From positions 1 through 26,075 of the forward strand of contig JBHIDR010000007.1 in assembly GCA_046760225.1 (NCBI GenBank): DNA of 26,075 nucleotides, written 5' to 3'. Every line of letters begins with the position of its first letter. Positions within the stretch are counted from its first letter, which is position 1. Positions 3,001-6,000 of the stretch are shown here, in pieces. The stretch is from Candidatus Aenigmatarchaeota archaeon. Its GTDB lineage: Archaea > Aenigmatarchaeota > Aenigmatarchaeia > Aenigmatarchaeales > JACQIB01. Made by a program: the position numbers.

Positions 3001-6000
3001 CTGATTTTAGCCTTGATAATGCTTCTCTTTGTGCCTTTGGGAGCTGCCCAGGAAGAGAACATAACAGCGAACATAACAACGAGTGGGGACTGCATATCGC
3101 TTCTTGAGACAGCGCAGCAGTCATTGAACTCACTCAAGAGCGTTTATTTCCTTTTTGCAATACTGTTTGCAGTGCTCCTGATGATAATAGCATTCTCAGC
3201 AATCTACATATTGAAGGTGAGGATAAGGTTGAGGAGGCTGGAGGAGATAGAGGCGTACGAGGCAATTGAGAAGGCAGAAAAAACAGAAAGAAGAGTATCG
3301 AGAAAAGAGATGCCCAAGGAAAAGATTGGATTTTTTGCAAGGTTCAGGAAAAAGAAGGGTAAACCAAAAAAAGTATCGCGAAAGAGAAAGAGAAGAAAGA
3401 AATCAAAGAAAAGGGTGAAGAAGTAATGCCTGAAGATGAAATCGATGCATATCTTGATGAGATAGTAATGGACTTGAGGAGGAAGCTCGAGAGGAAGCTC
3501 GGTGAAGAGACAGATATAATGGCCCTGGAGAGATCAGTAAAGAAAATGGATAATGTGTTGGCATATTTGAAAAAGGAGATGAAGAAGGAATTGGAAGACA
3601 AAAAGAAAGACAAAAAAGCCCTCAAGAAGTCAATAAAGAGGCTTGAAGATACAGTTGACTATATGAGGGAGCAGCTGGAAAAGGAAATAGGAAAGAGAGG
3701 AGAGAAAGATATAAAAGCTTTAATAAAGAAAGCATTAGAGAAGAAGACCGGAAAGATTAAGGAGAAGAAAAAGAAGGAGAAGGAAATAGAGAAAGAATTG
3801 AAAATAACCAGGGAGTGATTAAGTGAAAATTGAAATAAAGCAGGAAAAGGAAAACCCGGTGCTGAAGAGAAAAGAGATAAGGGCCAGGATAGATTATGGT
3901 GGCGGTGCAACGCCGAGCAAGGCAGAGATGCAGGTTGCAATAGCAACTGAAATGAAGGTTGCGCCTGAGAAGGTTGAAATAAGCAGGATAATTTCTGATA
4001 GTGGCTTGCCTGCAGGCACAATATGGGCAAAGATATGGGAGGAAAAGAAAGTGGAAATCTATACCAAAGCAAAAGAAGAGAAGCCGGCAGAAGAAAAGCC
4101 AGTGGAAGCACCAAAGGAGGAAGCACCCAAGGAAGAAAAGCCAGCTGAAGCCCCGAGAGAAGCAAAACCTGAGGCTCCTAAAGAAGAACCAAAGGCTGAA
4201 GAGAAGAAGGAAGAGGAGAAGAAAGAAGGTGAATAAATGGGAAAGAAGAAAGGAAAGAAGGAAAGGAAGGGCAAGAAGCCAAGGAGCAAGAGCAAGCACA
4301 GGAAATCGCAGAAATGGAAGAAGTACAAAGACGGCAAGCCGCAGGGCAAGTTCTGTCCTAGATGCGGTCCCGGAGTCTTTGTTGGGGTGCACAAGGACCG
4401 TGTTGCATGTGGCAAGTGCGGATATGCAGAAGTGCAGAAGAAATAAAAGCCTGTGCGCTAATTCTAAAGCATGATTTGTCTGGGCATCGAGAGTACTGCA
4501 CATATTTAGCAGAAATACTTTCGGTGTTGGAATAGTTTCGGATGAAGGAAAGATTTTAGCTAATGTTAAAGAGATTTATACACCGAAAAAAGGAGGAATC
4601 CATCCGCGCGAGGCTGCTGACCATCATGCTGATATTGTAGGTGAGGCAATTGCACAGGCAATAAAGAAAGCGGGGATTGAAATAAAAGATATAGATGTTG
4701 TTGCATTCTCCCAGGGGCCTGGCCTGCCTCCATGCCTGCGCATAGGCGCAACAGCTGCAAGGATTCTTGCATTTAAACTGGGAAAGCCATTGGTAGGTGT
4801 GAACCATCCAATTGCTCATATAGAGATAGGTAAACTTACGACCGGTGCAAAAGATCCGGTGATAACTTATGTTTCAGGAGGCAATTCGCAATTGCTTGCA
4901 TTCACAGAGGGAAGATATAGAATTTTTGGTGAAGTAATTGACGTTGCAATCGGTAACACAATTGACCAGTTCGCAAGGCAGGCGGAGCTCGGGCATCCAG
5001 GTGGACCAAAGGTCGAGAAGCTTGCAAAGAAAGGCAAGTGGGTTGAATTACCATACGTTGTCAAGGGAATGGACCTGAGCTTTTCAGGAATACTCACTGC
5101 TGCAGTTGACAAACTGAAAAAGGAAAAACTGGAGGATGTCTGCTTTTCCTTGCAGGAGACATGCTTTGCAATGCTCACAGAAGTAACTGAAAGGGCAATG
5201 GCGCATACAGATAAAAATGAAGTACTTCTTACAGGCGGTGTTGCTGCGAACAAGAGATTGCAGGAGATGCTTGAAATAATGTGCAGGGAAAGGGATGCAA
5301 AGTTCTATGTTGTGCCACGCGAATACTCAGGTGACAACGGTGTAATGATAGGCTGGACAGGTTTGCTGGCGTACAAGAGCGGACAGCGGCAGAAGCCTGA
5401 AGAGACAAGAATAGACCGCTACTGGAGAACTGATGATGTTGATGTTACTTGGATGGCTTGATATTCACTTCAAAACTCCCAGTTCCATCAGACTAACAAA
5501 ACCCCCGGAGCTAACAATTATGTGGTCAAGAAGCTCAATGCCCATTATCTTTCCTGCCTTAGCTATTTGTCTTGTTATTGCGATGTCTTCTTCACTGGGT
5601 GTTGGATTGCCTGAAGGATGATTGTGTACCAAAATTACTCCTGCAGCACTTTCAGCTAGGGCGGTCTTAAAAATCTCGCGCGGATGGACCAAATTCGCAT
5701 CTAAGCTACCGATTGAGATAGTTTCGCTCTTGATTAGCCTTTTTCTTGAATTAAGATAAAATCCTTTAAGATGTTCCTTTTTCAAATCACGCATCTTAAG
5801 GCCGCATAATCTCACAACATCTGCAGCGCTTTCAATCTTTAAGGACGGGCTGTCCGTATATGATGCTAACCGTTTCCCTAGTTCAAAAGCCGCGATAATC
5901 TGGCATGCCTTGGCTTCGCCAATCCCAAATATTCCTTTAAGTTCTGAAACAGTTATTTGAGAGAGCGCCCCAAGATTATATTTTTTAAGCAAACGCTTGG

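Follow-up and report, generated by a model that had tools for sequence, protein, structure and literature searches.

The kae1 (tsaD) gene in the window analysed here, a 26,075-nt stretch of an Aenigmatarchaeota contig, is interrupted at 4502..4514 by 13 nt that are highly likely to be a genuine archaeal tRNA-type intron, of the relaxed bulge-helix-loop form, within the kae1 pre-mRNA (all features of the window given below lie on the + strand). The genome-wide survey's note had proposed a BHB-type micro-intron at this place; that is still the best reading, and inserts at the same site in relatives, together with compensatory base changes, support it more strongly than was claimed. Kae1 is a KEOPS subunit required for t6A. 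Since the insert has the shape of a tRNA intron and splits an essential gene, and relatives have inserts at the same spot, the cell very probably must splice its kae1 mRNA. If so, a universal, essential tRNA-modification gene relies on the tRNA-splicing machinery in a class of DPANN archaea, and production of Kae1 becomes coupled to tRNA-splicing capacity. A literature search found no published description of a kae1 intron.

In the transcript, exon 1 would pair with exon 2 over 13 bp, and exon 1 and the intron would form a further helix of 4 bp stacked on top; the cut sites would fall within the 3-nt AAA bulge and, in the loop, among its first three bases. The EndA paralogs of this genome would cut after 4501 and after 4514, and RtcB would join the exons, creating a His codon (C + AT) and the full-length Kae1 frame. 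We infer this cleavage and ligation in vivo from the fold, the reading frame, the relatives and the enzymes encoded.

Reading frame and fold of the kae1 intron

Exon 1 (4471..4501) translates from its ATG as MICLGIESTA, ten codons, and ends in C, the first base of the His-11 codon. Read onward from the ATG at 4471, its frame gives MICLGIESTAHI and then meets the in-frame TAG at 4507-4509, within the intron. Exon 2 (4515..5461) supplies the two remaining His-11 bases, 314 codons and a stop; its frame is open from 4517 and ends at 5459-5461. Excising the 13 nt gives back the full-length Kae1 frame, so that the position and anatomy proposed for the intron are confirmed. It had been described as lying after codon 10: ten codons do precede it, yet it is a phase 1 intron, which splits codon 11 between its first and second bases. 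As ATA occurs at each intron end, four cut registers yield one identical product; among these four the fold selects 4501/4502 and 4514/4515, and the splice points that it predicts are those required by the protein alignment.

The exon-2 product, scanned alone without exon 1, matches the Kae1 profile TIGR03722 (arch_KAE1) at 5.7e-148 with 492.3 bits (cut-off 375), over profile positions 10-323 of 323, and also matches Pfam TsaD (1.1e-87). Because the match begins at position 10, only the first nine positions are absent, and these are the stretch encoded by exon 1; in alignment, exon 1 provides the residues found in homologues ahead of profile position 10. The exon-1 residues run straight into the exon-2 residues in 24 of 30 loci of the order and in 51 of 51 loci of other lineages. 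The gene is single-copy in this genome (1 match). Upstream lie the ribosomal protein genes for S24e (3823-4236; Pfam PF01282) and S27ae (4237-4446; Pfam PF01599), and the S27ae stop is separated from the kae1 start by 24 nt with no endonuclease cassette in between.

Within the exon-2 frame the earliest start codon opens an ORF of only 223 aa (4790-5461), and starting at the GTG at 4799 leaves 220 aa, which fits the survey's remark that the gene caller had reported just the last 220 residues. Gene callers truncate such genes, here with the loss of 105 kae1 residues; when the metabolism of a small archaeal genome is reconstructed, an essential gene may for this reason be counted as absent or damaged.

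The minimum free energy (MFE) fold of 4478-4533, at -20.5 kcal/mol, is the intron motif, as the survey had held; its z-score is -4.21 (-4.1 had been claimed) and 0 of 200 shuffles were equally stable. In this fold the outer, exon-exon helix joins 4483..4495 to 4516..4528 in exon 2 over 13 bp, and the central helix joins CTGC of the exon (4496..4499) to GCAG of the intron (4509..4512) over 4 bp. Both helices agree with the earlier description; its two 3-nt bulges and 6-nt loop do not hold, because the 5' ACA sits in a 9-nt hairpin loop (4500..4508). The first three bases of this loop replace the 5' bulge, with a predicted 5' cut after 4501, and the 3-nt 3' bulge AAA (4513..4515) has a predicted 3' cut after 4514.

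The strict hBHBh' definition has both bulges closed by helices on both sides; AAA is closed in this way and ACA lacks the inner helix, so the motif is of the relaxed form. Relaxed BHB forms go by the names bulge-helix-loop and hBH. The features expected of them are present here, namely a 4-bp central helix between the cuts, an exon-exon helix beside the 3' bulge and cuts that restore the frame. BHB motifs are cut symmetrically, after the second base of each 3-nt bulge; by this rule the cuts fall after 4501 and 4514, and they rebuild the His codon and the Kae1 frame.

The bare geometry, set as a central helix of 4 bp, bulges of 3 nt and an outer helix of at least 8 bp, with G-U allowed and spacings of 2-60, was matched 903 times in a scan of the genome (2 x 851,505 positions), with an outer helix of at least 13 bp in only 10 of the matches. 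The bare motif is not rare and is no evidence by itself; the improbable part is its location at the sole frame-restoring register. Genome-wide BHB candidates that join open frames numbered 3,792, mostly from neighbouring genes and overlapping frames, and were too noisy for counting other mRNA introns.

Same-site inserts and covariation in relatives

Inserts at exactly the same site were read directly in 6 of 30 kae1 loci of the order, and a sequence pattern identified them in 8 of 42 order genomes. Applied to the class, the pattern matched in 21 of 371 genomes, 20 of the matches being within kae1; a reversed control pattern gave 7 matches. A covariance model run on 151 sampled class genomes found 10 intron-bearing kae1 genes, nine already known and one new (G238). 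Pattern and covariance model together bring the genomes with the intron to at least 21 of the 371 in the class, belonging to at least eight family codes (f1, f3, f4, f7, f15, f18, f27 and f32). Within the family of the present genome, kae1 of relatives had been described as uninterrupted in five of five genomes; this is true of the family, with the count raised to six of six, and fails beyond it, since same-site inserts occur elsewhere in the order and class. The kae1 intron is either ancient in the class or has spread across it, with many losses or gains.

The pattern-found inserts measure 12, 13 (four cases), 14, 16 (ten cases), 17, 18, 24 and 30 nt, and that of G238 measures 28 nt. The suggestion that 13 nt is about the shortest length possible is refuted by the 12-nt insert at the same site in G253, and tRNA introns as short as 11 nt are described in the literature (PMC2738675). 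An in-frame stop is found in 19 of the 20 pattern-found inserts and a frameshift in the remaining one, and the MFE folds of all 20 are the same motif. In longer same-site introns the inner helix is formed (7 bp in G024, 4 bp in G082 and 7 bp in G238). The intron-bearing relatives have a conserved exon 1 and an open, full-length exon 2; spliced frames are 325-357 aa long in 17 of 20 relatives, with the other three reaching contig ends, and the cut register rebuilds the His codon in 20 of 20. Apparent stops inside kae1 of G003 and G031 were considered as further introns and rejected as natural stop codons. The pattern was also scanned against metagenome contigs, where none of the at least 120 stretches listed lies within kae1 and all resemble chance matches.

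In 20 sequences, found through a pattern that itself fixes 6 of the 17 pairs and including kin that are not independent, 96.2% of helix cells are paired, against 33-45% when the partner is slid; none of 500 shuffles scores as high. Changes on both sides affect 6 pairs (19 cells). The outer helix has 95% of its cells paired, with both-side changes at 5 pairs; the central helix is 100% paired, and its central pair is U-A in 16 sequences and C-G in 4, never mixed. The Ser AGT or Gly GGT codon of exon 1 covaries with the Thr ACT or ACC codon of exon 2. Pairing across the outer helix reaches 11-13 of 13 positions in six intron-bearers, compared with 6-11 (mean 8.5) in 24 intronless genes, and the Ser codon is AGT in all six intron-bearers and in none of the 24 intronless genes. 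The bulge AAA does not vary among the 20 sequences, but the search pattern itself prescribed these bases.

Each strand of the outer helix is coding sequence, and the two are partly complementary even in intronless genes (mean 8.5 of 13).

Splicing enzymes and other explanations of the insert

Two genes with EndA domains, placed by calculated offsets at C2:22790-23278 and C2:23825-24352, score above the Pfam cut-off (PF01974). Paralog 2 has chain 3iey_A as its best match (4e-35) and retains the Tyr and His; ahead of the catalytic His it carries an inserted loop with many Lys and Arg residues. Paralog 1 lacks that His. Both paralogs align Ala with the first K of VRKK in chain 1a79_A, which we take to be the catalytic Lys of M. 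jannaschii EndA; with Ala at this position in both, the enzyme is atypical. The broad-specificity EndA of the (alpha-beta)2 type is described as having a catalytic and a structural subunit and a Lys-bearing extra loop near the active site (PMC5829648; PMC12397907). From their sequences, the two paralogs probably form a hetero-oligomer of broad specificity; cleavage of the relaxed motif in kae1 would require such an enzyme. An RtcB is also encoded (PF01139, 496.8 bits). The rtcB frame is itself broken by about 32 nt, so the supply of ligase is not straightforward.

Introns are predicted in 13 of the 21 predicted tRNAs. For tRNA-Val(UAC) (C4:8758-8844) ARAGORN predicts a 13-nt intron at 37/38, and the pre-tRNA has the geometry of kae1: the anticodon stem serves as the outer helix, the central helix (CTTA/TAGG) has 4 bp, the loop 9 nt and the 3' bulge 3 nt, dividing the intron as 1+6+4+2 nt. 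The symmetric cut rule, checked against this tRNA alone, gives the 37/38 junction of ARAGORN. With the 13-nt intron geometry identical in the two transcripts, the same enzymes would be expected to act on both; the kae1 substrate differs in being an mRNA, and its outer helix, built from two coding exons, has 13 bp, against 5 bp in the anticodon stem.

The insert has a stop codon and shifts the frame, and this is a small, reduced genome (851,505 bases in 83 contigs, 83% complete), as might be expected were kae1 a pseudogene, inactivated by a 13-bp insertion that is never removed from the RNA. We consider this improbable: 21 genomes of at least eight family codes have an interruption at this site with exon 1 conserved and exon 2 full-length and open, compensatory changes maintain the helices, the single-copy status of kae1 stands alongside the established requirement for t6A, and the exon-2 product, at 492 bits against the cut-off of 375, has no visible decay. 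Another reading is cleavage by EndA without joining, at a degradation or regulatory site, with Kae1 made otherwise or absent. The interrupted rtcB would agree with such an outcome, and so would the cutting of mRNA without ligation that is described for the endonuclease in yeast (PMC10485636). Yet no product could then hold exon 1, the start in the exon-2 frame leaving 223 aa, whereas exon 1 is still conserved and the register rebuilds His in 20 of 20 relatives; we consider unjoined cleavage improbable too.

Ribosomes might instead hop or shift across the 13 nt, and the stable hairpin with a stop just past the break does recall bypass signals. Phage T4 gene 60 is a known case of translational bypass. 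In kae1 there are no matching take-off and landing codons and no second His codon on the landing side, and the 12-30 nt inserts have a common fold but no common codon pattern. In 10 relatives, moreover, the exon-1 codon is CTN (nine) or CCC (one), so that the DNA has no His codon at the site and His arises only by joining C to AT. Recoding is accordingly very improbable. An error of sequencing or assembly is hardly credible at all, even though the runs holding this genome are metagenomes and the assembly is in 83 contigs: a contig of run X3, from a different sample, spans 4274-5257 and bridges the intron with no differences and no gaps, and inserts are found at the same site in independent genomes. 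Contigs of runs X2 (from 4498) and X4 (from 4477) also have the 13 nt, likewise with no variant, although only that of X3 counts as bridging. Rare variants are lost from contigs, and the population could therefore still include an intronless allele.

Homing endonucleases and known mRNA introns

A gene for a LAGLIDADG homing endonuclease lies directly upstream of kae1 in 5 of 21 intron-bearing relatives and is found beside 0 of 24 intronless copies. The assignment comes from weak Pfam matches, two LAGLIDADG-like motifs and a fold search, which matches PI-SceI and I-DmoI; the model has a mean pLDDT of 65.7, so the fold support is moderate. A sequence search of the PDB with the profile of the endonuclease family gave just one weak, irrelevant match. 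S27ae and kae1 are separated by two extra ORFs in G008 and G037, relatives that encode the LAGLIDADG-fold protein. In the window and genome studied here, tblastn and profile searches found no endonuclease gene.

Tentatively, we suggest a selfish cassette of two halves, in which the kae1 micro-intron may supply the 'immunity' and a free-standing LAGLIDADG endonuclease would be its partner. The endonuclease, encoded between S27ae and kae1, would cut intronless kae1 at the stretch coding GIESTAH/TFG; repair off the intron-bearing allele would copy the endonuclease gene, the intron and flanking codons; and the tRNA-splicing enzymes of the host would render the insertion harmless. The present window would then be a relic, in which the intron is retained and the endonuclease lost. 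Such a cassette, if real, would provide BHB introns with a route of mobility at the DNA level, and may also account for the mini-introns of EF-2 and rtcB in these archaea; the link to the endonuclease gene in relatives offers a testable answer to the question of how such introns move. Identity in the 60 nt around the site, compared with elsewhere, is 75% versus 64% among intron-bearing alleles and 67% versus 62% among intronless pairs, figures that are compatible with co-conversion and with helix selection and decide neither.

Collaborative homing by F-CphI and psbA was reportedly described by Zeng in 2009. As set out in PMC6083498, free-standing F-CphI lies beside the intron-containing psbA of cyanophage S-PM2. 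Similarly, the gene with a homing-endonuclease fold in five relatives is free-standing and adjoins the intron-bearing end of kae1, never an intronless copy; in the genome studied here this adjacent gene is missing. The psbA intron differs in that it belongs to group I and splices itself, and in that case the intronless site has been demonstrated to be cleaved; that of kae1 would be a host-spliced BHB micro-intron with a putative homing partner.

A BHB intron in the cbf5 pre-mRNA of Crenarchaeota was reportedly described by Watanabe in 2002 and Yoshinari in 2006. According to the account in Yokobori 2009 (PMC2738675), the cbf5 intron occurs in Desulfurococcales and Sulfolobales and is 33-39 bp long. 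The cbf5 intron resembles that of kae1 in its often relaxed motif and in its patchy gain and loss among relatives; its hosts have a hetero-oligomeric endonuclease, as the present genome probably does. The kae1 intron is in another gene and another lineage (DPANN, Aenigmatarchaeota), lies 31 nt from the start codon, unlike that of cbf5, and differs in that splicing has been demonstrated for cbf5 and is here deduced. In Haloferax volcanii the splicing endonuclease cuts the HVO_1309 mRNA at a BHB motif (PMC10485636; PMC7714728). This is the second archaeal mRNA to be published as processed at a BHB, as that of kae1 would be; it comes from a euryarchaeon with a homodimeric enzyme, and the gene is unrelated. 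In the account of PMC10485636, only cbf5 and HVO_1309 figure as archaeal protein-coding transcripts that are substrates of the tRNA-splicing endonuclease, and more are expected. Inserts at the kae1 site range from 12 to 30 nt, and those of 12-13 nt are well below the 33-39 bp given for cbf5 introns in PMC2738675.

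The 13-nt insert and its predicted fold

We conclude that the 13 nt at 4502-4514, which interrupt the KEOPS subunit gene kae1 (tsaD), are a real, conserved micro-intron of the tRNA type, whose splicing we infer. Exon 1 (4471-4501, plus strand) opens with the ATG at 4471, 24 nt past the stop of the S27ae ribosomal protein gene; its frame encodes MICLGIESTAHI and then meets the stop TAG at 4507-4509. Exon 2 (4515-5461, plus strand) lies in a second frame, open from 4517 through 314 codons and closed by the stop at 5459-5461. Judged by sequence its product is unmistakably Kae1, matching TIGR03722 at 5.7e-148 and 492 bits (cut-off 375) over positions 10-323 of 323. 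Since the match starts at profile position 10, only the first nine positions are missing, and these correspond to the stretch encoded by exon 1. Excising 4502-4514 fuses C4501 with AT at 4515-4516 into a His codon and sets exon 1 directly before TFGVGIV, the identical order found contiguous in intronless homologues. ATA occurs at either end of the insert, which makes the product the same for four cut registers. Without excision, the earliest start codon in the exon-2 frame yields a 223-aa ORF, consistent with the observation in the genome-wide survey's note that the gene caller retained just 220 residues.

The minimum free energy (MFE) structure, computed for 4478-4533, contains a 13-bp outer helix (4483-4495 of exon 1 with 4516-4528 of exon 2), a 4-bp central helix that pairs 4496-4499 with 4509-4512 and stacks directly on the outer one, a hairpin loop of 9 nt (4500-4508) and a 3-nt bulge, AAA (4513-4515). 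The fold has an energy of -20.5 kcal/mol and a z of -4.21; none of 200 shuffles was equally stable. A bulge-helix-bulge (BHB) with two bulges had been proposed here; the motif stands and the closed 5′ bulge does not, because the inner helix that would close it is absent, making this a relaxed bulge-helix-loop rather than a strict BHB. The inner helix missing from the 13-nt form is present in longer introns at the same site.

Within each 3-nt bulge, the splicing endonuclease cleaves 3′ of the second base. Applied to the kae1 fold, this rule predicts cleavage 3′ of 4501 and of 4514, in the register that the protein requires. It can be checked within the host genome on tRNA-Val(UAC), for which ARAGORN predicts a 13-nt intron at 37/38. 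In that precursor the outer helix is the anticodon stem and the central helix has 4 bp (CTTA with TAGG); ARAGORN's printed sequence gives a 9-nt loop and a 3-nt 3′ bulge, for an intron of 1+6+4+2 nt with the geometry of the kae1 intron.

The bare geometry is common once G-U pairs are allowed, a scan of the host genome returning 903 matches with an outer helix of at least 8 bp and 10 with at least 13 bp; the weight lies in the motif falling on the sole frame-restoring register. As to assembly, the 13 bases were found in contigs from three sequencing runs with zero differences, and one contig, from a sample not marked as a potential source, spans 4274-5257, intron included. A contig of run X2, at 4483-4536 of the window, matches from 4509 onward and has a different kae1 5′ end upstream, with a 17-nt insert at the identical site, indicating a related intron-bearing organism in the same sample set.

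Among the neighbouring genes, at 3823-4446, the C terminus of S24e ends in a long tail rich in Glu, Lys and Pro, and S27ae carries a Lys-rich N-terminal extension. A RadC-like JAB-domain gene (5465-6157, minus strand; PF04002, 3.9e-44) is convergent with kae1.

Inserts at the same site and covariation

The relatives compared are Candidatus Aenigmatarchaeota, a DPANN lineage with genomes of 0.3-2 Mb. Of 30 kae1 5′ ends read directly in the order, 24 are contiguous and six are interrupted at exactly this site. The family genomes, previously given as five, are all intronless as had been claimed, six of six by direct reading. A search pattern for the intron site, derived from directly read kae1 sequences, matched in 8 of 42 genomes of the order and 21 of 371 of the class, counts that are lower bounds because the pattern misses about 1 in 10, the relative G238 having been found by a covariance model only. 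The reversed control pattern gave seven matches; kae1 holds 20 of the 21 class matches, the last being a chance match elsewhere. Run on 151 sampled class genomes, the covariance model found 10 intron-bearing kae1 genes (nine already known, and G238) and also picked up 16 intronless ones as shorter matches. In outside lineages (other Aenigmatarchaeota, Asgard, Thermoplasmatota, Methanosarcinales and others) all 51 loci are contiguous at the site.

The inserts measure 12, 13 (four cases), 14, 16 (ten cases), 17, 18, 24 and 30 nt, with 28 nt in G238. An in-frame stop is present in 19 of 20, the remaining one shifting the frame, and the identical motif is the MFE fold in all 20. Once the insert is removed, 17 have frames of 325-357 aa, and three run past the end of their contigs. 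Searches of the literature on BHB introns in kae1, in DPANN and in protein-coding genes, and on introns in Aenigmatarchaeota, turned up no account of this kae1 intron. Spliced archaeal mRNAs in print include cbf5 and HVO_1309 (PMC10485636); published lengths are 11-175 nt for tRNA introns and 33-39 bp for those of cbf5, and an archaeal virus has 12-bp 'introns' that are unproven (PMC2738675).

Across the 20 sequences 96.2% of cells are paired, falling to 33-45% once the partner is shifted by one to three columns. Both sides change in six pairs (19 cells), a score reached by 0 of 500 shuffles; an earlier test on eight sequences gave a result the same in kind. The search pattern had fixed 6 of the 17 pairs, restricted a seventh to Y/R and left ten outer pairs free. 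Five of these ten show compensatory changes, one coupling exon-1 Ser AGT / Gly GGT to exon-2 Thr ACT / ACC, and the seventh pair occurs as U-A (16 sequences) or C-G (4), without any mismatch. Outer positions are paired at 11-13 of 13 in intron-bearing genes versus 6-11 (mean 8.5) in 24 intronless ones, and the Ser codon is AGT in 6/6 versus 0/24. In 10 relatives the DNA lacks any His codon at the insertion site. A pseudogene, an artefact and ribosomal hopping were each considered, and none accounts for the covariation together with this missing codon.

Splicing genes of the host

Two genes with the domain of the splicing endonuclease EndA lie on contig C2 (1297-1785 and 2332-2859 of the stretch L040), with one unrelated ORF between them; their products are 46% identical. 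The second, closest to chain 3iey_A (4e-35), has an extra Lys/Arg-rich loop ahead of the catalytic His, which the first lacks. By sequence the two look like a catalytic and structural pair. Both have Ala at the position aligned with a Lys of the M. jannaschii enzyme, which we take to be catalytic, and this would count against an easy reading as such a pair. Hetero-oligomeric EndA with such loops has been linked to relaxed motifs (PMC5829648; PMC12397907).

The host also has a gene for the ligase RtcB, its frame broken by about 32 nt (1646-1677 of L042, contig C35) that separate the codons for GGIG from those for DINCGVR; the gene for the presumed ligase of the kae1 exons is thus itself interrupted. 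This insert has a TAGG/CCTA central helix and a 7-bp inner helix (GACTAAA/TTTAGTC); its 3′ bulge is AAA and its outer helix is weak. ARAGORN predicts 21 tRNAs in the genome, 13 with introns; the 693-nt intron predicted in tRNA-Tyr(GUA) (C3:24967-25736) is long enough to code for a protein.

Distribution and upstream endonuclease-type genes

On a quick Kae1 tree with 44 rows, no fewer than nine changes of intron state are required, at least five of them forced by well-supported branches, in a sampling biased because the class rows from outside the order are intron-bearers only. Several supported pairs join intron-bearing and intronless sisters (G023/G040; G024 versus G016 and G021).

Directly upstream of kae1, on the same strand, 5 of 21 intron-bearing loci carry one homologous ORF family (331-461 aa), and at a sixth locus the ORF is a different one that matches LAGLIDADG_3; the family occurs within 1.5 kb of kae1 in 0 of 24 intronless loci. 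Its predicted structure (mean pLDDT 65.7) matches PI-SceI, I-DmoI and I-Tsp061I. The gene order in G008 and G037 is S24e, S27ae, an unknown ORF, the endonuclease-type ORF and kae1, whereas in the host, whose genome has no member of the family, kae1 directly follows S27ae. Collaborative homing, as described in PMC6083498, combines a free-standing endonuclease with an intron; the upstream ORF and the kae1 intron resemble such a cassette in having these two parts, here known from genes and a predicted structure. By this analogy, endonuclease-driven homing of the kae1 intron is possible as a bolder reading.

More distant members of this LAGLIDADG-fold family lie directly upstream of EF-2 on the minus strand in G105 (L271:1250-1520) and G106 (L272:880-1500). 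The G105 EF-2 gene has a 33-nt insert inside the P-loop coding stretch, with a central helix CCAC/GTGG, an inner helix and an AAA bulge, and its excision restores HHGKTTL; that of G106 has about six short frame-breaking inserts within its first ~200 codons. In G110 (L273:1063-3999) a family member lies directly upstream of EF-1alpha, the frame of which appears intact.
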